From a virus (taxonomy: Duplodnaviria > Caudoviricetes), in IMG/VR virus record IMGVR_UViG_3300028832_000095, positions 64,001 to 128,000 of that record: a DNA stretch of 64,000 bases. One strand, given 5' to 3'. Positions 9,072-62,117 of the stretch are shown piece after piece. The notes under the pieces were generated by a model. That model made no database searches and had not been told where the DNA came from. It worked only from the letters and a program-made list of their open reading frames with translations. The translations under genes and the position numbers were made by a program. How positions within the stretch are numbered: the stretch's first letter is position 1; the number at the start of each line of letters is the position of its first letter.

Positions 9072-11309
9072 ATGGAAACATTGGCAGTAAAGTATAGACC
9101 TAAGACATTTGATGATATGGTAGAACAAAGTGTTGTAAAAGACATTTTGATGAATCATATTAAGGAGAAGAAAGTAAGAAATGGTTATCTGTTTAGCGGA
9201 AGCGCTGGCTGCGGAAAAGCACAACCTTTGTATAGCAAGGTACTAACTCCTAAAGGTTACATTGCTATGGGTGAGGTTTCTGAAGGAACAGAAGTTATAA
9301 CACATACGGGATCAGTTGCATCCGTTTCGGAAGTATTTCCACAGGGAGAACGTGACATTTATGAGATACAGTTTAGTGATAGAACAAGTATTCGTGTGGC
9401 AGATAATCACCTAAATGTTGTATATAGGTACAATCAAAATAAGAAAATGAGAGAAGATTTTGTATTAACAACAATGGAGCTTATAGAACTATTAAAAAAA
9501 TCTAAAGATAAGATTAGAGTTGACCTTCCTGTGGTTGACTTTGATAAGACGGATGTTCCAATTGATCCATATCTATTAGGTTGCTTAATAGGTGACGGAT
9601 CACTCCATAATAATTTTGGTTTTTCTAATTCAGAAAAAGATGTTATTGATAAAGTATCCGGTATAGTTAGTAAGTATGATTGTTGCTTAGTACACAAATC
9701 TGGTTGTGATTATGCTATAAGTAGAACAACAGATTCTTTTAAAAATTACTATGTTTTTGAAGGAATTACTTATAAAGGACCTTATAAATTGATTGATAGA
9801 CTTGTTGAATTGGGTTATCCGAAATTTGATTCTGAAACAATTTTACAATTATCTTGCAATAAGGCGAAGATTATAGTTTCTAGGTATCCTGAACTCATCG
9901 GTAAAATAACCAAGATAACCAATGAAAATTATAATCAGCAAAATAAACTTTTAACACTCATAAAGAATATGGGTCTTGACGTTGGATCTAAGGACAAATT
10001 TATACCGAAAGAATATCTTATAAATGATGCCAATACAAGACTTCAAATTTTACGAGGTCTTTATGATACCGATGGATATACATCGTCTGGTGGGGAAACA
10101 AGTTTCTCCACATCTAGTAAAAAACTGTCCGATGATTTTGCTTTTTTAGTTAGATCTTTGGGTTGTCGTGATACGGTTATTGTTAAAAAATGTGGATACA
10201 GAAATCCAAATGGTGATTATGTAGAGTGTAGCAATAGTTATGAGCACTATATTAAATTTCCAAATAATTTAGTATATTGTTCTTCTGAAAAACATTTAGC
10301 TAGACGTAAAGAAAGACAACACGATCCAATCAAGAGTATTGTAGATATTAAATATGTAGGAAAAGAATTTTGTCAGTGTATTTATGTAGATCATGAAGAT
10401 CATACATACATTTCGGATGATTTTATTCCTACACATAATACAACCTCGGCACGTTGTTTCGCAAAGAGTCTTAATAGTTCTATAACAGAGCTTGACGCAG
10501 CTTCCCATAGTAGTGTGGATGATGTAAGGGATCTTATTAAAGATTCAAGACTGAAACCGATGGGAACTGATTATAGAGTATACATCATAGATGAAGCGCA
10601 TTCGCTTAGTAATCAGGCTTGGCAAGCTCTACTCAAGACATTGGAAGAGCCAACACCAACAAGCATTTTTATTTTTGCTACAACAGATCCTCAAAAAATT
10701 CCAAATACAATTTTATCCAGAATTCAAAGGTATAACTTCAAAAGAATTTCACATAAAGGAATTGTAAACAGATTAAAATACATACTTGATTCTGAAAATA
10801 AGAATGGTTGTAACTATACATATACCGAAGATGCCATTGATTATATCGCAAAATTATCTGAGGGTGGTATGAGAGATTCCATAACACTTATGGAGAAGTC
10901 ATTAGGTTATTCTGATAATCTTACAATGGAATCTGTAACAAAGGCTCTCGGAACTGTTGACTATGAAACAATGTTCACACTCACGGACAGCATTTATAAT
11001 ATGGACAGAAAATGTGTTATTTCGTGTATTGAGGAAACACATAGGGAAGGTCTTGATCTAAAACAGTTTATCAAGAATTATAGCTTTTTTGTTCTTGACC
11101 TTTGTAAATATGATGTATTTAGGTCTTTTGAGTATCTTCAGATGCCGAATACATATGAAGATAGGATGAAGAAGTATACACCAGATCACTATAAGTTCTT
11201 TACAGACTTACTCAATACAGTAATGCAACTCAATACAGATATTAAATGGGAATCTACTCCGAAGCCACTTATTGAATCAACACTTGTTCTTCTTTGTTCG
11301 GAGGGGTGA
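9072..11309 (+). CDS. dnaX: DNA polymerase III gamma/tau clamp-loader subunit, intein-containing
   Basis: LAVKYRPKTF, GCGK|TT, ELDAAS, IIDEAH, LLKTLEEP, TILSR, GGMRD. Confidence 0.93.
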   Translation: METLAVKYRPKTFDDMVEQSVVKDILMNHIKEKKVRNGYLFSGSAGCGKAQPLYSKVLTPKGYIAMGEVSEGTEVITHTGSVASVSEVFPQGERDIYEIQFSDRTSIRVADNHLNVVYRYNQNKKMREDFVLTTMELIELLKKSKDKIRVDLPVVDFDKTDVPIDPYLLGCLIGDGSLHNNFGFSNSEKDVIDKVSGIVSKYDCCLVHKSGCDYAISRTTDSFKNYYVFEGITYKGPYKLIDRLVELGYPKFDSETILQLSCNKAKIIVSRYPELIGKITKITNENYNQQNKLLTLIKNMGLDVGSKDKFIPKEYLINDANTRLQILRGLYDTDGYTSSGGETSFSTSSKKLSDDFAFLVRSLGCRDTVIVKKCGYRNPNGDYVECSNSYEHYIKFPNNLVYCSSEKHLARRKERQHDPIKSIVDIKYVGKEFCQCIYVDHEDHTYISDDFIPTHNTTSARCFAKSLNSSITELDAASHSSVDDVRDLIKDSRLKPMGTDYRVYIIDEAHSLSNQAWQALLKTLEEPTPTSIFIFATTDPQKIPNTILSRIQRYNFKRISHKGIVNRLKYILDSENKNGCNYTYTEDAIDYIAKLSEGGMRDSITLMEKSLGYSDNLTMESVTKALGTVDYETMFTLTDSIYNMDRKCVISCIEETHREGLDLKQFIKNYSFFVLDLCKYDVFRSFEYLQMPNTYEDRMKKYTPDHYKFFTDLLNTVMQLNTDIKWESTPKPLIESTLVLLCSEG
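9219..10439 (+). mobile_element. Ala-starting (class 3-type) intein with LAGLIDADG endonuclease
   Basis: AQPLYSKVLTP..CQCIYV..IPTHN/T; LLGCLIGDG and LRGLYDTDG; 407 aa inside the P-loop. Confidence 0.9.
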
Positions 11310-11311
11310 TT

Positions 11312-12160
11312 ATGTATATCTGTGGACAAAAAGAATTATTAAGTAGGATTGATTCTTTAATAGGTAGAAATAGATTTCCAAGATTTTGTATTTTAGTTGC
11401 ACCGGAAGGATATGGAAAAAAGGTATTATCTGAGTATATTGCAAACGAGCTTGAATGTACTTTTGTTCCATGTGAAACAAAAGTAGAGAGTGTTAGAGAA
11501 ACAATCTATAATTCTTATAACATATCATCTAAGATGCTTTATATGTTTTTCGATTGTGATGATATGTCTGTAAACTCTAAGAATGCGTTATTGAAAGTAA
11601 CGGAGGAACCACCAAATAATGCTTATTTCATAATGACAGTACAGAATCTATCTACTGTGCTACCAACGATCATAAGTAGAGCAACAATATTCAATCTTGA
11701 AAATTATTCTATTTCCGAACTGGAAGAATATGTAAAACAAAATAAGTATGAATTTGATAAGGAAACAAAAAAGATCATATATCAAGTATCAACTTGTCCG
11801 AAGGACATAACCACATATACAGAGGTTAATTTGAAAGAAGTATATAGTCTTGCGGATAAGTTCATACAGTATATCGGTTCTGTATCACTGTATAATGAGT
11901 TTAAGATAGGGTATTCGTTGAACATAAAAACAGAAACAGATAAGGTTGATCCTGTTCTGTTTATGCGGTGTATTATGTTCGTGTGTATGGATTATATTGA
12001 ACGTGGTTGTGAAAAAGAAGATTATAAAATATTCAATACAATAATAAAGCAAACAAGCAAATACCTTTCAGAGCTATGTCAAAAAGGAAGCAGTAAGCAA
12101 ATCGTTATTGACAACTGGATATTAAACACTCACCTTGAAATATCCGGAGGTGCATTATGA
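11312..12160 (+). CDS. holB: clamp-loader delta-prime-like subunit
   Basis: GYGKK, NALLKVTEEPP, LPTIISR. Confidence 0.8.
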   Translation: MYICGQKELLSRIDSLIGRNRFPRFCILVAPEGYGKKVLSEYIANELECTFVPCETKVESVRETIYNSYNISSKMLYMFFDCDDMSVNSKNALLKVTEEPPNNAYFIMTVQNLSTVLPTIISRATIFNLENYSISELEEYVKQNKYEFDKETKKIIYQVSTCPKDITTYTEVNLKEVYSLADKFIQYIGSVSLYNEFKIGYSLNIKTETDKVDPVLFMRCIMFVCMDYIERGCEKEDYKIFNTIIKQTSKYLSELCQKGSSKQIVIDNWILNTHLEISGGAL

Positions 12161-13098
12161 ATTTAATGGAATTGAAATCAAGTATGGCAAACAAAGATAT
12201 ACACAATTTGTATATTTTTTATGGCGCGGAATATGCCATACTTGAAATATATATCAAGAAACTGAAAGATATTGTAGGTGGTCAGTATGTTCAATATGAT
12301 GATGTAGCATCATTATACAGAACACTAGACAAGAAAGATATGTTTGGATCCCAAAAGAAGTTTGTTCTTATTAGGGAGGACAAAGATTTTTTAACATCTG
12401 AATCTATGTGGAAAGACTTTGAATCTAAACTAAGTAAGAAGGATATAACACTTGTATTGAAATATTCCAGTATAGACCAACGATCTAAGTTCTCAAAAGC
12501 ATTTTCTGACAGGATGACTGAGTTTACATACCTCTCAAAAGAAGTTCTTACAAAGTATATCAAAAAAGAAATTGATATTACTGATTCTTGCTGTCAGTAT
12601 TTGTGTGATATTACACATAATGATTATGGTAGGATTCTTTTAGAAGTAGACAAAGTAAAAAGTTATGCACAGATAAAGAATATTTCCGATATGGATGCAT
12701 TCAAACAGTGTTATAGTGAGAATGTATTTCATTGTGATGTTGAAGGTGAAGTATACGATCTTGTAAATGCCATAATGATTCGCAGTATAAAGGATATTCA
12801 TTATCTGTTACAGGAATCGAAAGAACGTAAAGATAATCCAATCATGGTATTAGCAATTCTCCATAATAATGTAAGAACTCTTTTACAGTTACAGTTAGCC
12901 GGAGATGTAAAGGATCTGGCAGATCGAACAGGACTTACTGGTTTTCAGATAAAGAATGGAAAACAGTTTGTAGGTGTTTATGACAATAAAGAACTTGTGA
13001 GATTTATGAAGTATATTAGATACTGTGAAAAAGGAATAAAAAATGGACTGTTGAATTCGGACAATGCCATTGATTATTTACTGATAAATGTTCTGTGA
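12157..13098 (+). CDS. holA: clamp-loader delta-like subunit
   Basis: LYIFYGAE, IDQRSKF, EVDKV, VYDLVNAI; synteny with dnaX/holB. Confidence 0.75.
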   Translation: MNLMELKSSMANKDIHNLYIFYGAEYAILEIYIKKLKDIVGGQYVQYDDVASLYRTLDKKDMFGSQKKFVLIREDKDFLTSESMWKDFESKLSKKDITLVLKYSSIDQRSKFSKAFSDRMTEFTYLSKEVLTKYIKKEIDITDSCCQYLCDITHNDYGRILLEVDKVKSYAQIKNISDMDAFKQCYSENVFHCDVEGEVYDLVNAIMIRSIKDIHYLLQESKERKDNPIMVLAILHNNVRTLLQLQLAGDVKDLADRTGLTGFQIKNGKQFVGVYDNKELVRFMKYIRYCEKGIKNGLLNSDNAIDYLLINVL

Positions 13099-31889: not shown

Positions 31890-31993
31890 GTATATAAAAA
31901 AACAAATAATTAAACTATAAACAAAACAATCTAGAACTATAAACGATGTAACTCGTTATAGGACGGGACATTATGTGAAAAGGGGATGGTCTT

Positions 31994-32358
31994 ATGGTAA
32001 GAAGATTAAACGAAGATATATATATAAGGATAATGAGTATTATAACGAATTTCAACAGTGGTTAGACAACGATTATCCTAATCTTATCAGGGAAGTTGAG
32101 GAATATGTAGAAGAAGGATTCACAACAGAAGCTGCAATAGAGATTGTCTGTGATTATTATGGAATATATAATGACCAAGGTGAAATTGACGATATTTGCA
32201 AGTTATTTGGAGTTAGAAGAAGACGCGATTATACACCTCAGGATATGCTTCTAGCATTTGATAAAAATATGCTAGATGTTACAAATGAATACATTGATGG
32301 ATATAGAGATGCCTGCAAAGGGATCAAGGAACTGTATGGAATAAATTTGAATATTTAA
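31994..32358 (+). pseudogene. L-x-E leader family protein, frameshifted at a TA repeat
   Basis: RBS + MVRRLNEDIY at 31994 is out of frame with the body KDNEYYNEF.. Confidence 0.6.
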
Positions 32359-32371
32359 GGGAGATGTTTCT

Positions 32372-32776
32372 ATGAAACTTATTATTGAAGATATTGGTAA
32401 TTATAGGTTTGCCATTATTATTAAAAATGATTCTGGCAGAAGTTATAATTTTGTGGAATGGGCAGATTCTTTACAAGATGGTAAATCAACCGCTAGGGAA
32501 TACTATGATAGTGATTTTTATCATCGTACTCATTCAGAGTATTGGCTTTATGATACAAAGAAACATAGAGCTTATTTACCACAAGGGTTTAGTTCTACAG
32601 ATCAGCAATTTGATAATTCCTTACCTATTTATAAAGAGGATGATGAGGGTAGATATGAACTTCTTGTTGATTATGTAGATGATAAGATATATGGAATGAA
32701 AGAGTCCGTTCAGCCTGATGGTAACTCGGTCAGAAAGGCATGGGCAGAAAAACTAGGAGTAGACCAAAACTATTGA
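32372..32776 (+). CDS. L-x-E leader family protein (5' part)
   Basis: MKLIIE, internal MKES; probably continues into 32740 ORF. Confidence 0.55.
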   Translation: MKLIIEDIGNYRFAIIIKNDSGRSYNFVEWADSLQDGKSTAREYYDSDFYHRTHSEYWLYDTKKHRAYLPQGFSSTDQQFDNSLPIYKEDDEGRYELLVDYVDDKIYGMKESVQPDGNSVRKAWAEKLGVDQNY

Positions 32777-41564: not shown

Positions 41565-41933
41565 ATGAAAATCATTGAGATTAAATATTTTGAAAACCTT
41601 AGAGAAGTAATGAAAGATCCTAAATATCGTAGAAGCCATATCGGAGTATATGTCGCTTATAAGAACTATATGGAATCCGTCAGACTTGGTGCAGAGGAAT
41701 TTGAAGTTTCTGATCCTCCGTATAATGAAGAAGATATGCGGGAATTTATCAAAACTCTGGAAGCCGCCGGAGTAAATAGATTCTGCTATACTGCCAAGAA
41801 CACCATTACAATTGATTTCCTTCATGTATGTACCGATATGTGGTGGCAGAATATTCATGTTGGATCTATTCACAGAACTAATGAAATTTTCGGAGAAGAA
41901 GATGTAAAAGGAATATGGGTAGAGATTTCTTGA
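41565..41933 (+). CDS. hypothetical protein
   Basis: GGAGG RBS. Confidence 0.6.
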   Translation: MKIIEIKYFENLREVMKDPKYRRSHIGVYVAYKNYMESVRLGAEEFEVSDPPYNEEDMREFIKTLEAAGVNRFCYTAKNTITIDFLHVCTDMWWQNIHVGSIHRTNEIFGEEDVKGIWVEIS

Positions 41934-46388: not shown

Positions 46389-46814
46389 ATGTTATTAAAA
46401 GAAGATAAACAGTTATACAGAGGTATATTCTGGATTCCGGATATTGATAATGTGAAATCATCTAATCTATATTTTACAATTCCTTGTGATGTTGATGGAT
46501 ATATAAACGATACTGAATTTCAGATTTCCGATATTGTATCTTCTACTGGATCAGATAATTATAACCATAAAAAACTGTGGAAATCTTTGGGAAATAAATA
46601 TACAAATGGAAAGGACTTTTCTTATTATCCTAGAGGTAGAGTTGAAATTAGCAATGGAATTGCAAAAGTATTTCATTCTCCACATATTCCACAAGATGAT
46701 CTTAAAAGATTTGTTATTGATAAATTTAATCTAACTCCGTCAAACGGAATCAAGAAGATTAAAATGATTGCTGATGGAAGTGACCATTATAAATGTTATT
46801 TAGATGAGGAGTGA
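46389..46814 (+). CDS. hypothetical protein, paralog of 6891..7316
   Basis: GIFW..NHKKLW..YYPRGRVE..DGSDHYKC. Confidence 0.75.
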   Translation: MLLKEDKQLYRGIFWIPDIDNVKSSNLYFTIPCDVDGYINDTEFQISDIVSSTGSDNYNHKKLWKSLGNKYTNGKDFSYYPRGRVEISNGIAKVFHSPHIPQDDLKRFVIDKFNLTPSNGIKKIKMIADGSDHYKCYLDEE

Positions 46815-51138: not shown

Positions 51139-54100
51139 ATGTATCAAATTAAGAAACGAAGCGGAGAGTTAGAACTATTTGAACTATCAAAAATCAAGAC
51201 AGCAATAAAAAGGACATTTGATTCTTGTAATAGAAATTATCAAGAGTCTATTATAGAAACAATATCAATCAAATCAGTGGCAGATGCAGAAACAAAGATA
51301 AAGGATAATGTTCTCAATGTAGAAGATATACAAGACAGTGTAGAAAAAGTCTTAATGACATATGGATATGAAGATGTAGCAAAAGCATATATTCTATATA
51401 GAAAACAACATGAAAAAGCAAGGAATGCTAAAGAGACATTATTGAATTATAAGAAAACTATCGAAAGTTATAAGAACAGAGATGACTGGCGTGTAAAAGA
51501 AAACTCTACTGTCACCTATTCTCTTGGAGGTCTTATTCTAAATAATAGTGGAGCTATGACAGCTAACTATTGGCTTTTTGAAATATATGATGATGAAATT
51601 GGAAATGCTCATAGAAATTGTGAAATGCACATACATGATCTTTCTTTTCTATCTGCTTATTGTGCCGGATGGTCACTTAAACAACTAATACAAGAAGGAT
51701 TAGGTGGAGTACCTGGAAAAATCAGTTCAGATCCGGCATCTCACTTATCTACATTATGTAATCAAATGGTGAATTTTATAGGTATACTCCAAAATGAATG
51801 GGCAGGAGCACAAGCATTTTCAAGTGTGGATACATATTTAGCACCTTTTGTAAAAGTAGATAATCTTTCTTATAAAGAAGTAAAGCAGTGCATCCAGTCT
51901 CTTGTGTTTGGTCTTAATACTCCTTCAAGATGGGGATCACAATCACCTTTTAGTAATTTTACCATGGATTGGACAGTTCCGGATGATCTTGCAGAACTTA
52001 ATTGTATCGTAGGAGGTAAAGAGTTAGACTTCCGTTATAAAGACTGTAAACGTGAAATGGATATGGTAAATAAAGCATTTATGGAAGTTATGATGGAAGG
52101 TGATGCAAACGGTAGAGGTTTTCAATACCCCATACCGACTTACTCAATAACAAAAGAATTCGATTGGGATCCTGAAATCCCAAATAATAAACTTCTATTT
52201 GAAATGACAGCAAAGTATGGAATTCCATATTTTAGTAATTATGTTAATAGTGATATGTCCCCCTCAGATCTGAGAGCAATGTGTCTACATCCAGATACAG
52301 AAGTTAGATTTAAATACGACAAGGTTTTTGTAGAAACATCTATTCAGGATATGTATGATAATTACGATGTTAATAAGATTCAAATCCTAACAAAATTTGG
52401 TCTTAGACCTGTGAAAGAAGTACAACGATTTGGTTATACTGGAAAACTACTTAAATTTACATTTGATAATGGTACTACGTTAATCACCACACCTGATCAT
52501 GATCACGTTATTTATGAATTTACAGGTGTTCGTAGATATACCAACGGGGAAAAAGGTGGCTTCTTTGAATATGGAAAACAGCCTGAAGGTTGGTATCTAA
52601 AATCAAAATCACCTGTCATAGACGGTAAATGTCATCTTATTAAAAGAAAGGCTTCAGATCTTAAAGTAGGGGATTATTTATCTGTAAGATCTAAAAACGG
52701 TGGTGAATATCGTAGAGGAAAGACTTATGAAGAATCATACGGTGAGGATAAAGCAAAACAATTAAAACAAATGTTTAGCAAAGATCGAAAAGGTCGTGTT
52801 TCTTGGAATAAAGGTATACCAACTCCCTTAGAAGTAAGAAAGAAGATATCAGAAGCTGAAATTGGACATTATGTATCTGAGAAATGCCGTAAAGCATCCT
52901 CCGAAAGATGGAAAGGATCCAAAAACCCATATAATAAAAATGGCGTGAGGGTTTCTGGAAGAAGCGCTAGTATTAGTAACTATGAAATAGATTTTGAAAA
53001 AGAGTTATTAGCACTGGACACAGAATTTGTAAAACAGTATCCAGTTTTAAATAATAACAAAACCTATATTTGTGATTTTTATATCCCAGAAAAAAATCTT
53101 ATTATAGAACTGGAAACTGATTATAGATATAGTGAGTGTTCTTATAATAACACTGAAAAAGTTTTTATATCCCACCTGAAAAACAAATATGACGATATCA
53201 TAAGTTCCGGTTATAATCTTTTAGTAATTAATCCAAAGATAGATAAATCTTCTTATAGATGCCATATAAATAATCATACTCAAATCATAAACATTGAATC
53301 CATTGATTATGATGGTTATGTGTATGATCTAGAAGTAAATTGTGATGACGTTGGTGGTGATACTACATTATATCATACTTTCTATGCTAATAATATCTTA
53401 ACTGGGAATTGCTGTAGATTGCGTTTAGATCTTCGTGAACTTAGACGTAAATCAGGAGGATATTTCGGTAGTGGGGAATCCACTGGAAGTATTGGAGTTG
53501 TAACATTAAACCTTCCAAGAATAGCATATACATCAAAAACAGAAGAAGAATTCTTTACTAAGCTAGATAAACTAATGGATATAGCGGCAAGATCATTAAA
53601 TATAAAAAGAACAGTTGTATCACAGTTATTAGAACAAGGATTATATCCCTATACAAAGAGATATCTAGGATCTTTTAATAATCACTTCTCTACAATTGGA
53701 ATTGTTGGTATGAATGAATGTTGCTTAAATGCTAATTGGATTGGTTATGATATCTCTACAAAGATTGGGTATGAATTTTCTAAGAAGGTTTTAGATCATA
53801 TAAGGGAACGACTTTCGGATTATCAAGAACAGTATGGTGATCTATTCAACCTTGAAGCAACACCTGCGGAAAGCACTTCATTTAGATTTGCAATGCATGA
53901 TAAGAAAGATTTTCCAAATATAATCACAGCCGGAGATAAAACAGATGGAGCACCTTATTATACAAATAGTTCTCATCTTCCAGTAGGTTATACAGATGAT
54001 ATTTTTGAAGCACTGGATCACCAAGACGATTTACAAACTAAATATACTTCTGGAACTGTATTTCATGCTTTCCTAGGAGAGAAACTTCCTTCTTGGCAAG

Positions 54101-54657
54101 CTGCTATGAATCTTACTAGAAAAATAGCAGATAATTATAGACTTCCTTATTTCACATTCTCTCCCACATATTCTATTTGTCAGGAACATGGATATCTAAC
54201 AGGGGAACAATGGAAATGTCCTCACTGTGGAAAAGATACAGAAGTATATAGCCGTGTTACAGGTTATTATCGTGCTGTTCAAAACTTCAATGATGGTAAA
54301 GCACATGAGTTTATGGATAGAAAAGAATATACAGATTTTTCCAGAGAATTTGCAACACCAGAGATAAACTATTCTGAAACAAAAGAAGTAAATACAGAAG
54401 AAGTAAAACTTGAAAGACCAATTCTCTTTACCACATCAACCTGTCCAAATTGTAAAATAGTAAAACAGATTCTTGAAGAACATGGATTTGTATATGATGT
54501 AGTAGTTGCAGATCAGGATATGGAAACTGCAAGAAAGTTCAATATCAATCAAGCACCAACTCTTGTTGTTCAAGATGAAGAAGGAAATCTAATTAAAGTA
54601 GCAAATGTATCTAATATAAAGAAGTTCCTTGAAGAAACAGAGGAATCAGAAGAATAA
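51139..54657 (+). CDS. nrdD: anaerobic ribonucleoside-triphosphate reductase (ATP cone, intein, C-terminal glutaredoxin-like domain)
   Basis: HIHDL, YCAGW, AGAQA, M|CCRL, EATPAES, YSRVTGYY, CPNC. Confidence 0.95.
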   Translation: MYQIKKRSGELELFELSKIKTAIKRTFDSCNRNYQESIIETISIKSVADAETKIKDNVLNVEDIQDSVEKVLMTYGYEDVAKAYILYRKQHEKARNAKETLLNYKKTIESYKNRDDWRVKENSTVTYSLGGLILNNSGAMTANYWLFEIYDDEIGNAHRNCEMHIHDLSFLSAYCAGWSLKQLIQEGLGGVPGKISSDPASHLSTLCNQMVNFIGILQNEWAGAQAFSSVDTYLAPFVKVDNLSYKEVKQCIQSLVFGLNTPSRWGSQSPFSNFTMDWTVPDDLAELNCIVGGKELDFRYKDCKREMDMVNKAFMEVMMEGDANGRGFQYPIPTYSITKEFDWDPEIPNNKLLFEMTAKYGIPYFSNYVNSDMSPSDLRAMCLHPDTEVRFKYDKVFVETSIQDMYDNYDVNKIQILTKFGLRPVKEVQRFGYTGKLLKFTFDNGTTLITTPDHDHVIYEFTGVRRYTNGEKGGFFEYGKQPEGWYLKSKSPVIDGKCHLIKRKASDLKVGDYLSVRSKNGGEYRRGKTYEESYGEDKAKQLKQMFSKDRKGRVSWNKGIPTPLEVRKKISEAEIGHYVSEKCRKASSERWKGSKNPYNKNGVRVSGRSASISNYEIDFEKELLALDTEFVKQYPVLNNNKTYICDFYIPEKNLIIELETDYRYSECSYNNTEKVFISHLKNKYDDIISSGYNLLVINPKIDKSSYRCHINNHTQIINIESIDYDGYVYDLEVNCDDVGGDTTLYHTFYANNILTGNCCRLRLDLRELRRKSGGYFGSGESTGSIGVVTLNLPRIAYTSKTEEEFFTKLDKLMDIAARSLNIKRTVVSQLLEQGLYPYTKRYLGSFNNHFSTIGIVGMNECCLNANWIGYDISTKIGYEFSKKVLDHIRERLSDYQEQYGDLFNLEATPAESTSFRFAMHDKKDFPNIITAGDKTDGAPYYTNSSHLPVGYTDDIFEALDHQDDLQTKYTSGTVFHAFLGEKLPSWQAAMNLTRKIADNYRLPYFTFSPTYSICQEHGYLTGEQWKCPHCGKDTEVYSRVTGYYRAVQNFNDGKAHEFMDRKEYTDFSREFATPEINYSETKEVNTEEVKLERPILFTTSTCPNCKIVKQILEEHGFVYDVVVADQDMETARKFNINQAPTLVVQDEEGNLIKVANVSNIKKFLEETEESEE
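52282..53409 (+). mobile_element. intein with NUMOD3-like motifs and Vsr/DUF559-like endonuclease
   Basis: CLHPDTEV..TTPDH..VYDLEV..FYANNILTGN/C; WNKG..RKKISE; CDFYIPEKNLIIEL. Confidence 0.88.
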
Positions 54658-54660
54658 TTG

Positions 54661-54752
54661 TAGTAATAATCCACAAATAAGTTCTGAAATAATAGGACTT
54701 ATTTGTGGGTTATTTTGTATTGACATTTTTATGTTTTTGTGTTATACTATAT
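54661..54752 (+). promoter_or_regulatory. terminator + sigma-A promoter module
   Basis: CCACAAATAAGT/ACTTATTTGTGG; TTGACA(54720)-N17-TATACT. Confidence 0.8.
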
Positions 54753-54884: not shown

Positions 54885-55466
54885 ATGGTAAAGAAATTAA
54901 GATTGGACGAATCAAATCAGAAACCTGTTGTAAATGAGATTTTGTCCGACAACCTGGAATTATACCTCCAAGATTTTGCACAGGAATACGGTGGTATTGA
55001 TTATAACGATATTTCAGATCTTAGTAAATGTTGGGATAAACTTGAGAATGCTACGAAGTCCAGAATCAGAAAGTTTGTTTCGGAGATCAAAAAAGCCTGT
55101 AAAGAAACAGGAATGGATGCTTACGAACTTTCCCAGGAATATCCGGAAGATAAAGAAAATTGTGAAAACCTTGTAAAGCATATCAAAAATGCTATTAAGG
55201 GATGTAAGAAAGAATCTGTAAACGGAAAGTTAAAAGAATATGTCACAGTTAGTACAAATGTTAAGGAAGAAATAAACACTACCTTAAGTAGACTTCAAGA
55301 TACTCTTAAAGGCCTGTACTTTATGAAAGACGAATTTTATAAGGACGAATATGTAGCAAGACTTGTAGATAATCTAGACACAATAAATGATTGTATATCT
55401 AGAATTCAGTATGACGAATCAGATGCTTGGCAACATGACAATAATGGAAAAGAAATAAATTGGTAA
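54885..55466 (+). CDS. L-x-E leader family protein
   Basis: MVKKLRLDE; linker KKESVNGKLKE. Confidence 0.7.
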   Translation: MVKKLRLDESNQKPVVNEILSDNLELYLQDFAQEYGGIDYNDISDLSKCWDKLENATKSRIRKFVSEIKKACKETGMDAYELSQEYPEDKENCENLVKHIKNAIKGCKKESVNGKLKEYVTVSTNVKEEINTTLSRLQDTLKGLYFMKDEFYKDEYVARLVDNLDTINDCISRIQYDESDAWQHDNNGKEINW

Positions 55467-55602
55467 GAAACGGTCTTAACATTAGAAATTTAATTTGTAA
55501 GAAATACAAAAAAAAAACAAATACCTACAATAAATAGTGGTACAAGAAGAGAAGTTGTTATTAGTACCACATAAAAATAATTTTAGAAAGGAATTATGCG
55601 TT

Positions 55603-56283
55603 ATGGTTAAGAAATTAAGACTAAGTGAAGCTAATACTCAAAGAATTGACCAGGTAATGACTAAAAAAACTATTCAAAACAAACTCGATGAGATTCGTGA
55701 TGATGTTTTTCGTCGAGGAACATACAGAATGGATGGAGTAGACCATAAAATTAAAAGTGTAAGATGTACCATCGAGGATGTGTGGGATGTTCCTACTAAG
55801 CCTGGTATTTGGGATATACTGGGTTATGTTGATATTAGATGGGACTACGATGAAGATTCAGATACAGTTGGAACACAAGATAATTTTAGTTTTTACTATG
55901 ATCCGGAAAAAGATGTTATTATAGAGAAAACAGACGAGTCTAAATTGAGAAAAAGATATGGGCATAGATTAAAAGAATCCGAACGTATGTTAAAAGAAGG
56001 CAACCAGGAATGGTTTGATAAACAACTAACTACCGCGAAAAGATATCTGACAGACATTATAGATGCTGCGGAGAACGCTAGAGATCAATTATCCCAGTAT
56101 GTTACAGATGTTGAAGACGAGGTAGGAATTTCTGACGACCCAGAAAGACTGTTAGCTTTGGCTGGAAACCTAATAGCTAAAGCAAATAGAAAACTTGGGC
56201 AAGCAACAGAATTAGTTAATTCGTCTGACGTTTATTTTGATTTGTATTACTATAAACATGGTGGAACAGACGATGATATCTGA
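55603..56283 (+). CDS. L-x-E leader family protein
   Basis: MVKKLRLSE (revised start); linker DESKLRKRYGHRLKESERMLKE. Confidence 0.7.
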   Translation: MVKKLRLSEANTQRIDQVMTKKTIQNKLDEIRDDVFRRGTYRMDGVDHKIKSVRCTIEDVWDVPTKPGIWDILGYVDIRWDYDEDSDTVGTQDNFSFYYDPEKDVIIEKTDESKLRKRYGHRLKESERMLKEGNQEWFDKQLTTAKRYLTDIIDAAENARDQLSQYVTDVEDEVGISDDPERLLALAGNLIAKANRKLGQATELVNSSDVYFDLYYYKHGGTDDDI

Positions 56284-56290
56284 TTAGTAT

Positions 56291-56393
56291 ATAGTGAATA
56301 TACACAAAAACCCTTACATATATTTGTAAGGGTTTTTATTTTTGTCCTATTGACTTTTTCTATAAAATGTGTTATACTATATTTGTAAGTTAA
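56291..56393 (+). promoter_or_regulatory. palindrome + terminator + sigma-A promoter module
   Basis: AAAAACCCTTACA/TGTAAGGGTTTTT; TTGACT(56350)-N17-TATACT. Confidence 0.85.
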
Positions 56394-56424
56394 ACGGAAC
56401 AACAACCAACAGGAGGAAAAGAAA

Positions 56425-56631
56425 ATGAGTAAAACAAGATGTAGGAAGACAAGATACACGGTTACGTTTGAGATATTTTCTAATAATGGTGAACACAGAA
56501 AGTTCAATGAAAACTTCTGTTCCTATGATCCTGAAAAGTACATTGAAACATATGTGAAACGTGTTAAAAGGAAGTGGGCATATGCTGGTCTTTCCATTTC
56601 CATTAAATTCTATGATCTAAAAGAAAGATAA
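56425..56631 (+). CDS. hypothetical early protein
   Basis: AGGAGG RBS. Confidence 0.6.
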   Translation: MSKTRCRKTRYTVTFEIFSNNGEHRKFNENFCSYDPEKYIETYVKRVKRKWAYAGLSISIKFYDLKER

Positions 56632-56648
56632 TTAAGGAGGATATCAAT

Positions 56649-56912
56649 ATGAAACAGATAAGATTTGTAATTAGTAATGATACCTTTGGAAGAAACTATC
56701 TTGCTATTAGTGCGTGGAATTGTACGTTGGATGATCCGGTCGGTGTTTTTTGGACTTCTTTTGTGAATTGGGAGATTCTTCAAAAGGAGATTGCAAAACA
56801 TTCTGATTTTGGAAGAGTTACAGCGTTCAAAACAAAAGAAGAGGCAGAATCTGTTTGTCGTGAATTTGAAATCAAAGACTATACTATCCGTGAAATTATT
56901 ATGGATGTTTAA
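56649..56912 (+). CDS. hypothetical protein
   Basis: AAGGAGG RBS. Confidence 0.6.
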   Translation: MKQIRFVISNDTFGRNYLAISAWNCTLDDPVGVFWTSFVNWEILQKEIAKHSDFGRVTAFKTKEEAESVCREFEIKDYTIREIIMDV

Positions 56913-57001
56913 TAATATGAAATTCAAGAAATTTATTGGAAATCTCACACTTTGTATTTGACGAATAATGAATAGTCATGAACCGAATGAGGAGGTACTT
57001 T

Positions 57002-57220
57002 ATGACATTAACAGATATTTTATCCATGCCACAAGGATACACTCCAGAACAGTGGCAGAAAGAATTAGACCGTAAAAAGAGAATTGAAAAGAAGTTGAGG
57101 AAGTTGTCTACTGATCTTGATTTCTACTTAGACGGTTATGATATGACAGGGAAAGAAAAGTTCAAAGAACAGGCAGATCAGATTAAGTTTGAAATGGATA
57201 AGTTGAAGAAGAATTTATAA
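57002..57220 (+). CDS. hypothetical protein
   Basis: AGGAGG RBS. Confidence 0.6.
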   Translation: MTLTDILSMPQGYTPEQWQKELDRKKRIEKKLRKLSTDLDFYLDGYDMTGKEKFKEQADQIKFEMDKLKKNL

Positions 57221-57230
57221 GGAGGATATT

Positions 57231-57512
57231 ATGGCAAAGGGTTTTACAGATTATGTTTTTAATAATCTCAAGAGTAGTGGTTTTTACCATAACTATGATT
57301 ATCGTCATTATCCAACGGAAACACTTCCATACGATAACCATGTGAACAGACATATTGAAATTTATCTTCTTGTCAAAGAATATGTCGATCTTTATGAAGA
57401 TGGAAAGAACGCTTCTGAAGCTACTGCGAAACTTATCAAGGAACGTCTGAATGAAATAGCTAAGAAATTAGCAAAGACTTATTATATCGTAACAGAAGAT
57501 GAGTTGAAGTGA
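57231..57512 (+). CDS. hypothetical protein
   Basis: AAGGAGG RBS. Confidence 0.6.
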   Translation: MAKGFTDYVFNNLKSSGFYHNYDYRHYPTETLPYDNHVNRHIEIYLLVKEYVDLYEDGKNASEATAKLIKERLNEIAKKLAKTYYIVTEDELK

Positions 57513-57619
57513 CACAATGTTATGATGAGATTATACTTATGGAAAAGTTGAGAATAGTAAGGAGTTTGTAAAATCTCCTTATACATTCTATTCTAGCTAT
57601 ATGGAAGGTAGGTAAACAA

Positions 57620-57871
57620 ATGAACTACTATCTTATAAGAGAAACAATAGAATATAATAATAAAGTCACAACAGAAAAAATATGTGTCTCTGCCGGAGTT
57701 TTCAAAACAAAAGAATCCGCATGGAACTATGCAAAAGAACTTATTGATTCATGTGGAGAATTTGGGAAAACAGTAAGAACAAAGACATATGAAAAAATGA
57801 GACTTGTGTGTAATTATTGGGATGGAACAGAATTTACATATTCACTTGTTCCGGTAAGAGTTATGGAGTGA
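57620..57871 (+). CDS. hypothetical protein
   Basis: ORF with weak RBS. Confidence 0.55.
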   Translation: MNYYLIRETIEYNNKVTTEKICVSAGVFKTKESAWNYAKELIDSCGEFGKTVRTKTYEKMRLVCNYWDGTEFTYSLVPVRVME

Positions 57872-57878
57872 TATAATT

Positions 57879-58226
57879 ATGATTACAAAAGAAACATTCA
57901 AAAACGGTAAGGATACCCTTGTTGGTCTTCCGGCAAAAGAAGTGATTGAATTCATTAAAAACTCAGAAAAGTTTTCCATAGATTATATAACGGATAACGC
58001 TTATCCGATGGATTTTAATAGATATGGAAGAATTGTTTTTGATCTTCCTAGTGGATATGAACGTATTGGAGGAACTGGAAGAGGACATATCTCTATTCAC
58101 TTTAAGTATGTTCAAATAAATCCTAAATCATATCGTTTCAATGTTTCTAATCTGTTTAGAGTTATCATGGAAGTAGATAAGATCACAGAATCACAAGTAT
58201 ATCTTCCGGAAAATTTTGAGTTTTAA
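57879..58226 (+). CDS. hypothetical protein
   Basis: GGAGTG RBS. Confidence 0.55.
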   Translation: MITKETFKNGKDTLVGLPAKEVIEFIKNSEKFSIDYITDNAYPMDFNRYGRIVFDLPSGYERIGGTGRGHISIHFKYVQINPKSYRFNVSNLFRVIMEVDKITESQVYLPENFEF

Positions 58227-58339
58227 GAACTATGTAATTCAAAATACATTGATAATACATCTGACTATTATGATACGGCAGATGAGTTAATTAGATACTT
58301 CAATGAGATGCAGCGGAAAGGTAAGAATTATAGAGATGA

Positions 58340-58945
58340 ATGTTTGTTGAATTGAAAAGTTATGTTGCGGATACATTTTCAGTATCCGCTGATAGTATAT
58401 CCGAATCAATGTTTATACTTCCATATGATGAAGGTTCTTATCAAATAAATGAACAAATAGAAGATCCAATAAAAACAAGTATATTCTATAATGTAGATAA
58501 AGAGAATGGAATAATCAAATCAAGTATTTGTTCTGATATAGAGTATATTCCTGGTGAAGGTTATGTTAGTTTCAAATCTGCTGAGATAGAGGATTATAGA
58601 AGTTCAAGAAAACAAGAATTTTCTATTCCACAAGAACTGTTAGACATAATACCAAAAAGAGATGAACAGGGTAAAAAAGGATCTTCCGGAGCAAAAGCAC
58701 CCGTTGGTAGTTCATATTATATATTCGATGACGGAACTAATTTTACAGAAATTACATCATATGAGAATCTTGCAGATGCCGTGGATGATGAGAAACAAAG
58801 AGGCAATATATTCACAAAAACAAATATAATAGGACGAAGCGGAGGAATCTTATATATTCAATCTTGGGGATTCCAAAACATATACAAAATGATTCCATAT
58901 ATACAATTCATTCCAAGAAAGTATTTCCTATATACCGGAGAGTAA
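58340..58945 (+). CDS. hypothetical protein
   Basis: 201-aa ORF. Confidence 0.5.
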   Translation: MFVELKSYVADTFSVSADSISESMFILPYDEGSYQINEQIEDPIKTSIFYNVDKENGIIKSSICSDIEYIPGEGYVSFKSAEIEDYRSSRKQEFSIPQELLDIIPKRDEQGKKGSSGAKAPVGSSYYIFDDGTNFTEITSYENLADAVDDEKQRGNIFTKTNIIGRSGGILYIQSWGFQNIYKMIPYIQFIPRKYFLYTGE

Positions 58946-59076
58946 GAAATATTCAGTTTAGGTTATAATTTTAATCAGTATTAAACACAAAAAAACCCCA
59001 AGACTTTACATTAAGTAGTGAACAGCAATTATGTTCACTACTTAATTTTTTGTAATATGAAAGGAATTGATTATAT

Positions 59077-59655
59077 ATGATAAGAAGATTGAATGAGAAT
59101 AATGCCCGTGAAGAAATGATAAAAGATGATATTGAATACATAACAAAACAGGGTGGAGATATTTATGAGGTAGCCGATTATCTTGAAAATCTTGGATTTG
59201 AAGAAGGTGGAAGCACCGCACTTAAAGATAACCAAACAGGTAAAACAGAAATAACAACATTTTACAAAGATAGCGGTAGTAATATGTCTGTTGGTGTTAC
59301 ACATGAACCTTTATATAAAGGAGGAATGGTTCTAGGTACTCGCTTTACATATGGTGGAGGAACTAGAAATAAACTTGAATCTGTAAGAAGAAAACGTATT
59401 GTAAAAGAATCAGCAAAAACAGAAAAATTTGAAAAAATACTTGATATGCTTAGTGGATTAGGTTATGAGGGTAATGTAAATATTGTTGAGGCAGATCTAT
59501 CGAAAGGTAAAACAGTAGGAACTGTTAAAATTTTCAGATCTTCATATAGAATAGATTCTGATACATATGATGAAGACGATATTCTAAATGCCACCTGTTT
59601 AGGTCTTTCTCAAAAGAATGGCGGGGCTATTGATAGATTTTATATTTCTATCTAA
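59077..59655 (+). CDS. L-x-E leader family protein
   Basis: MIRRLNE; linker LESVRRKRIVKES. Confidence 0.7.
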   Translation: MIRRLNENNAREEMIKDDIEYITKQGGDIYEVADYLENLGFEEGGSTALKDNQTGKTEITTFYKDSGSNMSVGVTHEPLYKGGMVLGTRFTYGGGTRNKLESVRRKRIVKESAKTEKFEKILDMLSGLGYEGNVNIVEADLSKGKTVGTVKIFRSSYRIDSDTYDEDDILNATCLGLSQKNGGAIDRFYISI

Positions 59656-59773
59656 GTTGATCTTTATTAAACACAAAAAAAAAACAAAGAATAACAATAT
59701 CCATGTAGACTGATATGGTAAACAGTTTACATTGATATTTTTCAGTAATATGAAATAGAAAGGATAATGATAT

Positions 59774-60316
59774 ATGATTAAGAGATTGAATGAAATTACG
59801 GACGGAAAAACTTTTCTTGAAAAATCTATAGAACTCGCAAGGTGGTTATACGGTCATACTGCAAATTATGAAATGTCATCTGAGAGTAGACTGGATTTAC
59901 AGATGGAGCTTTCTAAACTTATTGCAATGATTGAAGGAGCAAATAATTATTATTTAGATGTAAAGAAAGAATCTAAATCAAGAACTAGAAAAAGAAGTAT
60001 TAAAGAAGGAATTGAACAAGTAGATGGCTATGCTGTTCAAATACATGATATGGGTAAGGGTTATATTCATCTTCTTCTTTTTAATGACGAATCGACAGCA
60101 GAAGAAGTATTAGAGTCACTTGAATATTTAGAATCAGCAGAAGATATTGATGAAGAAATGTTTTATGCCGAAGTTGATTATAATGTTGATATTGCCGATG
60201 ATGTTGTAAATGAAATTGATTGGAGAAGAGAAGTTGATAATAACGATGTATGGACTGCCTCTGACGATACAAAATACAAAATTATTGGCAGTGTTGATCT
60301 TTGGTTGTATTGGTAA
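59774..60316 (+). CDS. L-x-E leader family protein
   Basis: MIKRLNE; linker KKESKSRTRKRSIKEG. Confidence 0.7.
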   Translation: MIKRLNEITDGKTFLEKSIELARWLYGHTANYEMSSESRLDLQMELSKLIAMIEGANNYYLDVKKESKSRTRKRSIKEGIEQVDGYAVQIHDMGKGYIHLLLFNDESTAEEVLESLEYLESAEDIDEEMFYAEVDYNVDIADDVVNEIDWRREVDNNDVWTASDDTKYKIIGSVDLWLYW

Positions 60317-61604: not shown

Positions 61605-62117
61605 ATGATACCGTTAATTAAAGAAGATAGTTTTATGGAAATGGCGAAACTGATTCCAGATTATGCCGATGAATTGCTTTGTGGAGACTTTGGAGATTTT
61701 ATATATTTTTCTCCAAAACTACATCCGGCAGGTCCAAGAGTAAAGTTCTATGGTGGAACCAAAGAAACATCGACAACAAGAAAAGCACCTACACTTGCTT
61801 TTACAAATACAGGTGAAACAACTCTTGAATTAGCTAATTGGATGAACAAGAAGAATTGTCCAAATGCATTTGATTCTGAATATGTTGAAAAAGTACATAA
61901 CTTTGTAAACAGACTTCTTCCGATTCTACTTCTTGTTTGGTATGGGAAATTAGACGAAGCCCGCGCATTGAAGTATTTTGAAGGGGCTATTACATTAACA
62001 AAATTATTGTCGTATCTTAGGGAGATTCCTGAAAATCATCTTAAATATCTAAGAACTTGTGAGACATTGGATCAGATACAGGAATATTGTTTGAAGAATA
62101 ACCTATATAAATCATAA
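61605..62117 (+). CDS. hypothetical protein (possible L-x-E leader: MIPLIKE)
   Basis: AAGGAGG RBS. Confidence 0.6.
   Translation: MIPLIKEDSFMEMAKLIPDYADELLCGDFGDFIYFSPKLHPAGPRVKFYGGTKETSTTRKAPTLAFTNTGETTLELANWMNKKNCPNAFDSEYVEKVHNFVNRLLPILLLVWYGKLDEARALKYFEGAITLTKLLSYLREIPENHLKYLRTCETLDQIQEYCLKNNLYKS

Follow-up and report, generated by a model that had tools for sequence, protein, structure and literature searches.

A portable leader and linker peptide on unrelated two-module phage proteins, with a possible role in head packaging and prohead proteolysis

Four genes in a 64,000-nucleotide stretch of the genome of an uncultured phage (hereafter the window; bases 64001 to 128000 of IMG/VR record IMGVR_UViG_3300028832_000095, Duplodnaviria, Caudoviricetes) encode otherwise dissimilar proteins that begin with a short basic leader ending in [LIVM]-x-E and are divided in the middle by a basic linker with the same ending. 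Comparison with related proteins indicates that leader and linker constitute a single portable signal, either one being able to precede a given module, and this is the strongest result of the analysis. On balance, we lean toward a reading in which T4-style capsid targeting and protease processing would have been extended to shuffled two-module proteins, with the tags doubling as recombination handles. The source record (201,895 bp, 32% GC, genes nearly all on the + strand) is labeled G000, and related phages are labeled G001 (protease 64% identical, genome ~74% identical where alignable), G002, G003 (protease 39% identical), and G004. The four genes are listed below; in motifs, arrows mark putative cut points.

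54885..55466, + strand: two-module gene, 193 aa; leader MVKKLRLDE.
55603..56283, + strand: two-module gene, 226 aa from the ATG after the Shine-Dalgarno (SD) sequence GAAAGGA; leader MVKKLRLSE.
59077..59655, + strand: two-module gene, 192 aa; leader MIRRLNE; orphan cargo.
59774..60316, + strand: two-module gene, 180 aa; leader MIKRLNE.

All four open reading frames and their N-termini were as given in a preliminary description of this DNA, as were the mid-protein linkers between acidic domains and the dissimilarity of the proteins otherwise, BLASTP among the leader-bearing proteins detecting no paralogy. Each protein contains a single mid-protein Lys/Arg-rich linker of the form xES-basic-[LIVM]-K-E (net charge +1 to +5) that divides two acidic modules of 59-103 aa (-3 to -23). 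In the 54885 protein, where a second site, VVNE↓, accompanies the leader, the linker KKES-VNGKLKE↓ (residues 108-118, junction at nucleotides 55209-55238) separates module 1 (residues ~19-108, LELYLQDFAQEYGG family) from module 2 (residues 119-193). The 55603 protein, whose start Met is also used by its homologue P0002, has the linker DESKLRKRYGHRLKESERMLKE (residues 111-132), a tandem form written DES-KLRKRYGHRLKE↓SERMLKE↓ (nucleotides 55933-55998). Linkers of the other two proteins are LESVRRKRIVKE in 59077 (LES-VRRKRIVKE↓, residues 100-111, nucleotides 59374-59409) and KKESKSRTRKRSIKE in 59774 (KKES-KSRTRKRSIKE↓, residues 64-78, nucleotides 59963-60007), the latter standing between a helical-hairpin module 1 (residues 11-65) and an alpha/beta module 2 (residues 80-180, DGYAV...LWLYW family). 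Leader codons vary synonymously (GTA/GTT, TTG/CTA, GAG/GAA), hence the peptide, not the DNA, is conserved. Doubling of the signal was seen in the 55603 linker (RLKE↓SERMLKE↓) and in a G001 protein (reverse complement, 138172-138621) that opens with the tandem leader units MVKKYMKE↓SNRKMRRRNIKE↓.

The evidence for a single portable signal comes from proteins in which related and unrelated modules meet at it. Through HRLKES (residues 1-127), the metagenomic protein P0002 shares 94% identity with the 55603 protein; beyond that point the two are unrelated. Forty nucleotides at 59969..60008 (+ strand), encoding ESKSRTRKRSIKE, recur identically (13 aa, 40 nucleotides) in a G001 protein whose flanking modules are unrelated on both sides. 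This linker was the only exact match of at least 35 nucleotides between the two genomes with unrelated flanks, outside conserved genes; it was the sole match of all five proteins searched by local tblastn and phmmer against G001-G003, and it was absent from other IMG/VR contigs. An exhaustive HMMER search for homologues of 59774 module 2 recovered the DGYAV...LWLYW module alone after a leader (P0007, MVILIKE↓), alone after basic N-termini of other kinds, and as the last part of proteins of 190-540 residues, where ES-basic-[LIVM]xE linkers precede it; in total, it occurs alone or behind other modules in ~25 protein clusters. Module 1 of the same protein heads two longer proteins, P0006 and P0012. 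One module lies behind the leader MVRRIDE in P0009 and behind the linker SES-TKRNKRVKE in P0010, while the second module of P0036 is a homologue of the G000 gene at 200119, which has its own leader, MIKLFME. For module 1 of 54885, 9 further architectures were recovered, in which it stands at either the N- or the C-terminal end but invariably ~5 residues past the Glu of [LIVM]xE; this spacing to the module start held whether a leader or a linker preceded. Homologues retrieved by their cargo, not by the tag, nearly all start with [LIVM]xE leaders. Linkers of distant homologues keep the final Glu and the opening ES, the latter being absent from N-terminal leaders. The modular arrangement of tags and cargo proposed in the preliminary description thus stood as far as portable tags, interchangeable cargo, and swaps exactly at linkers are concerned, although its "several effectors per gene" came down to two modules here.

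Relatives carrying a different tag point the same way. In a second lineage (39% GC), the DGYAV module is found behind leaders such as MKIYSNKKRPVKAS and linkers of the form NAS-basic-VKAS, and many unrelated neighboring genes start with MKRY[IV]K[AS]. Such joint change of leader and linker is expected if a single lineage-specific reader recognizes both. G004 (IMGVR_UViG_3300031867_000027, L039-L043), a relative of 92.7 kb, has many small genes starting with MKRYI[KR] and a 1513-aa protein that begins MAIKKYSVKAS↓AEAKAVVAS↓. It appears to possess a comparable system that uses another tag. As to a capsid site for the V-K-A-S lineage, no S77, Gp23, or capsid gene was found in G004, which is 64% complete and has a terminase, portal, and sheath, and the contigs L035 and L036 are short. 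More tentatively than for the phage itself, and at somewhat less than even confidence, we consider that several phage lineages may use a lineage-specific "address plus cut here" peptide code ([LIVM]-x-E here, V-K-A-S elsewhere) at N-termini and between domains, whereby any small domain captured behind it could enter the capsid, be released by cleavage, and be injected, and recombination at the code would move domains between phages.

The leader pattern exceeds chance. Whole-genome N-termini were scanned for a Met, a basic residue, and [LIV]-x-E within 11 residues and were compared to a conservative null in which residues were shuffled within each N-terminal column (2000 shuffles). We observed 36 such N-termini against 17.3 +/- 3.6 under the null, whose maximum across all 2000 shuffles was 29, and the same excess was found in G001 and G002. 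Comparison of leader N-termini with internal windows gave 31 vs 6.7. Linker-like sites were likewise in excess (22 vs 9.7 +/- 3.0 in shuffled proteins) and were associated with leaders (Fisher p = 0.0013).

The genome also encodes a protease of the family to which this motif would correspond. Its single Peptidase_S77 (T4 gp21 family) gene lies at genome positions 11130-12836, outside the window as had been stated, and no other peptidase was noticed in the genome. The product matches Pfam PF03420 above the cut-off (1.2e-12) and T4 gp21 in the PDB (5jbl, 2e-5), the His of its ELDHPE and the Ser of its GVSSRG aligning with the gp21 chain, and is fused to a coiled coil of ~350 residues. Gene order runs from portal to protease to a gp23-type capsid gene (Pfam Gp23 match). 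The leader and linker motif fits this protease family because T4 gp21 cuts after L/I-x-E. The protease itself starts with M-basic-(V/H)LIE↓T in this phage and three relatives, recalling LIE-9 of T4 gp21. In the capsid protein, [LM]-x-E↓A(T/S)N at residues 62-64 is kept in four phages just before the conserved body and Pfam Gp23 match, making it a candidate maturation site with the same motif as the leaders; a prohead protease and a candidate capsid propeptide motif, which the preliminary description had suggested seeking elsewhere in the genome, were both located. The capsid protein further contains IAE↓SVQKK at residue 31, resembling the starts of linkers, and the scaffold part of the protease fusion carries ES-basic-...-x-E elements.

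Regarding the cargo, an AlphaFold2 model of the 59774 protein (28-sequence alignment) had a mean predicted local distance difference test score (pLDDT) of 81.7, with module 2 (80-180) above 90. Only residues 1-8 and 66-79, corresponding to leader and linker, fell under 50, and both are accordingly predicted by the model to be disordered. In a single-sequence AlphaFold2 model of 55603, too poor to rely on (mean 51), the pLDDT minima fell at residues 1-19 and 110-133. The searches made linked none of the cargo modules to an established family or fold. Pfam and PHROG domains were absent from all four two-module proteins, Foldseek of the 59774 model against the PDB returned nothing at E <= 0.001, and the VIA wide structure search returned only generic helical hairpins for its module 1 (Z <= 8.2). 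The 59077 protein recovered only itself among 5.8 billion proteins, and an atlas search gave nothing convincing for it, only weak PepSY-like look-alikes for module 1.

Taken together, we propose the following sequence of events. The leader of 7-9 residues, M-[VI]-[KR]-[KR]-L-x(0-2)-x-E, would dock the new protein onto the prohead core, here the coiled-coil tail of the protease-scaffold fusion. Once activated, the gp21-family protease would cut after the Glu of [LIVM]-x-E in both the leader and the internal linker, with a second cut perhaps at the E↓S opening each linker, so that each gene would yield a pair of small acidic domains and some short basic peptides. The freed domains would stay in the head and leave with the DNA. 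With the same short signal framing every module, recombination at leaders and linkers could swap modules between genes and phages, producing a fast-changing kit. We infer docking, cleavage, virion retention, ejection, and module function, while an anti-defence role of the modules is pure conjecture.

Leaders are not confined to the two-module genes. Two further leader genes lie in the window.

31994..32358, + strand: leader gene MVRRLNE↓D..., frameshifted (-1), with an (AT)5A run at 32016-32026.
32372..32776, + strand: single-module gene, 134 aa; leader MKLIIE↓, of a second leader class, M-K-L-x-I-x-E.

The MVRRLNE peptide reported at 31994 is real and has a good SD, but the gene is frameshifted, since the leader and body frames differ across the (AT)5A run: the leader frame spans only 23 codons (stop at 32063-32065), and a 127-aa body continues in the -1 frame past the run to 32358. 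Assembly error, repeat slippage, or decay (a dead gene) accounts for the frameshift; deleting one AT unit at 32016-32026 would rejoin the two frames. MKLIIE at 32372 was borne out, and this protein has no Pfam or PHROG family. Six more leader genes are located directly upstream of terminase and portal (genome 1904-6102), where relatives have equivalents. In the Streptococcus phage vB_SagM-GXN1, a cultured relative (protease domain 51% identical) on which no paper was found in the literature, genes starting MRLVRLTE, MRLVKLTE, and MRLIRLNE occur among capsid and tail genes, and in G003, leaders shift collectively to M-I-[IT]-[IL]-[KR]-E. Recognizable domains in leader- or linker-bearing proteins were found only elsewhere in the genome, namely PRTase and methyltransferase domains. 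The PRTase domain follows an MKLEFE leader at genome 1904-2725, a stand-alone PRTase paralogue being encoded at 145513, and the methyltransferase domain lies behind the linker YES-VRKPMKLRITE at genome 191961-192998. Possible extra leader genes in the window start with MLLKE (46389-46814, from a four-copy YPYEGYFW family), MIPLIKE (61605-62117), and MKIIE (41565-41933).

The expression context of the leader genes comprises two kinds of upstream element, represented by the following.

54720..54748, + strand: predicted host-type promoter, TTGACA-17-TGTTATACT, upstream of 54885 and 55603.
59673..59773, + strand: upstream cassette, consisting of the A-run ACAAAAAAAAAAC, then AACAATA, a hairpin, a T-run, and the SD GAAAGGA.

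The unit formed by 54885 and 55603 is bounded by terminators at 54666-54713 and 56306-56337. Approximately 38 near-identical promoters occur genome-wide (TTGAC[AT]-N17-TGTTATA[AC]T, then ATATTTACA), including those at window positions 54720, 56350, and 60404. All but one, at 676, lie outside the 1-43 kb structural block, which suggests early expression of the 54885-55603 unit. Further copies of the cassette start at 31894, 54801, 55506, and 58987, so that it is found 83-103 nucleotides before the ATG in all five M-[VI]-[KR]-[KR]-L genes of the window, as well as in three G001 genes. The composite motif occurred only before leader genes (6/6 in G000 and 3/3 in G001), and its A-run/ACAATA element is a putative promoter. 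As candidate late promoters, [AT]ACAATA rests on few sites, some of them inside terminator hairpins, and was not relied on, while the T4-like late promoter TATAAATA had no association with leader genes.

The head-packaged, protease-processed reading, already advanced in the preliminary description, gains from the portable tags, the swaps at linkers, and the matching protease family, but several observations weigh against it or, like the frameshift at 31994, call for a correction. The modules are acidic, whereas IPI-III of T4 are basic, and the leaders are shorter than the T4 capsid targeting sequence (CTS) and differ from it in sequence. With approximately 30 leader genes, the cargo list would be exceptionally long. 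The residue three positions before the linker E↓S is usually not hydrophobic, a misfit to the gp21 rule, and [LIVM]xE is short and common, with a regex background of ~17 per genome and false positives such as the QueE-like MKITELF. The support for the reading is drawn from sequence and structure models. In addition, 54885 and 55603 sit in a nonstructural region behind a strong host-type promoter of a presumed early class; early expression is compatible with packaging, yet unlike a purely late head component. An account built on this context, which we consider unlikely though not negligible, holds that the tags are not processing signals. Instead, the leader would be an expression-optimized N-terminus on a mobile promoter-hairpin-SD cassette, the linkers fossil leaders from gene fusion now serving as flexible basic tethers, and the proteins uncut early host-takeover proteins. 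Small acidic proteins are typical of phage early genes, consistent with such an account, as is the host-type early promoter before 54885 and 55603. Second modules sometimes start at an internal Met (ERMLKE; DMVDRICQLNE in P0002), and the conserved upstream cassette runs into the first codons, like the PeSL cassettes of T4-like phages (PMC2839356, PMC4122927). However, synonymous variation in the leaders points to selection on the peptide rather than the DNA, and the linkers keep the final Glu and an opening ES, lacking from leaders, across distant homologues. Co-change of leader and linker in the second lineage, and the occurrence of the same motif at the protease N-terminus and the candidate capsid maturation site, also argue against it.

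The same cleavage-site evidence, combined with the early-type promoter, would suit cleavage without packaging, whereby the head protease or another protease cuts the tags as a timing switch, releasing or destroying early proteins once late proteins appear; cutting inside and outside the prohead is not distinguished by this evidence. We nevertheless regard this as improbable. Characterized gp21-family proteases act inside the prohead after assembly (PMC9026906), the genome has one such protease and no other peptidase that was noticed, and a bare cleavage site needs no conserved basic-hydrophobic stretch ahead of it. Finally, the Lys/Arg-rich tags (+1 to +5) beside acidic domains could be some other localization or binding signal (DNA, membrane, or export) unrelated to head assembly, to which we assign very little probability: the leader is not a signal peptide, because no hydrophobic core follows it, and such a signal would leave unexplained both the invariant [LIVM]xE ending and the match to the capsid and protease sites.

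Megablast of the region against GenBank phages and tblastn of the 55603 protein gave no match, a related-locus search in IMG/VR with the 55603 and 59774 proteins confirmed nothing, and the 55603 protein found nothing in three related phage records. Between the two pairs of leader genes, an 87-aa gene in an operon (window 56649-56912) is ~90% identical to G001 at the DNA level, compared to the genome average of 74%, and its neighbors are not conserved. Upstream, window positions 51139-54657 hold an NrdD-like anaerobic ribonucleotide reductase open reading frame of 1172 aa with a large intein-like insertion, whose middle part resembles a homing endonuclease, and a glutaredoxin-like tail.

Capsid-borne proteins take effect ahead of all phage gene expression, and those of T4 include anti-restriction factors. 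If the tagged modules are head-packaged and processed as proposed, the injected proteins of uncultured gut and rumen phages could be listed from sequence, and rapid reshuffling of the injected-protein set would be explained. The code would also constitute a natural protein-delivery tag, providing short tags and linkers with which foreign proteins could be packed into phage heads. The ~30 small domains of this phage with no recognized fold or function, and many more in its relatives, would be candidates for early host manipulation.

The closest known counterpart is found in T4, whose CTS, MKTYQEFIAE, was reportedly treated by Mullaney and Black in 1996. By inspection, the leaders share with it only the Met, a basic residue, and the terminal x-x-E. 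In T4, this 10-residue N-terminal CTS is carried by IPI, IPII, IPIII, and Alt and loads internal proteins into the prohead core, where they are processed by gp21, which cuts after L/I-x-E (PMC9026906, PMC3012670). In both systems, rapidly evolving proteins with no other relationship begin with a short peptide that ends in L/I-x-E, and the genome also encodes a gp23-type capsid and a gp21-family protease, which has an LIE site at its own N-terminus. Unlike T4, the leader here is 7-9 aa, ~30 genes are tagged rather than a handful, the cargo is acidic instead of basic, the scaffold is fused to the protease, and a conserved ES-basic-[LIVM]xE linker, which would act as an internal leader, connects the two modules of each gene.

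In phiKZ and SPN3US, many proteins of the head interior are cleaved after x-x-Glu by a diverged gp21-type protease (gp175/gp245) that prefers Ser at P1' (PMC10052503, PMC5694885). A gp21-type protease cutting after Glu and propeptides with several sites are common ground, but the motif in those phages is A/S-x-E, within large proteins that have long propeptides; the literature searched on their heads was not found to describe a common short leader or module swapping at standard linkers. The T4 CTS, gp21 processing, internal-protein variability, multiply cleaved phiKZ/SPN3US head proteins, and polyvalent proteins are already established. No paper was found on standard protease-site linkers serving as internal leaders and swap points. 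PeSL promoter-stem-loop cassettes shuffle variable genes in T4-like phages (PMC2839356, PMC4122927). Resembling them, the upstream cassette is a conserved, putatively regulatory block with a hairpin that flanks hypervariable genes and could be a recombination handle. In contrast, the block described here, with its putative promoter, extends into the leader codons, and the gene itself contains a second handle, the linker. Polyvalent proteins (Iyer et al. 2017, PMC5512222) are large, with 2-15 recognizable, mostly enzymatic domains and usually their own MPTase peptidase. Neither an in-cis MPTase nor multiple recognizable effector domains were among the Pfam and PHROG results for the four proteins. 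The resemblance lies in several unrelated effector domains per polypeptide and in their proposed delivery with the DNA and cutting into units; here, however, there are two modules of 60-100 aa and no known family, and the head protease would act in trans on a standard linker.

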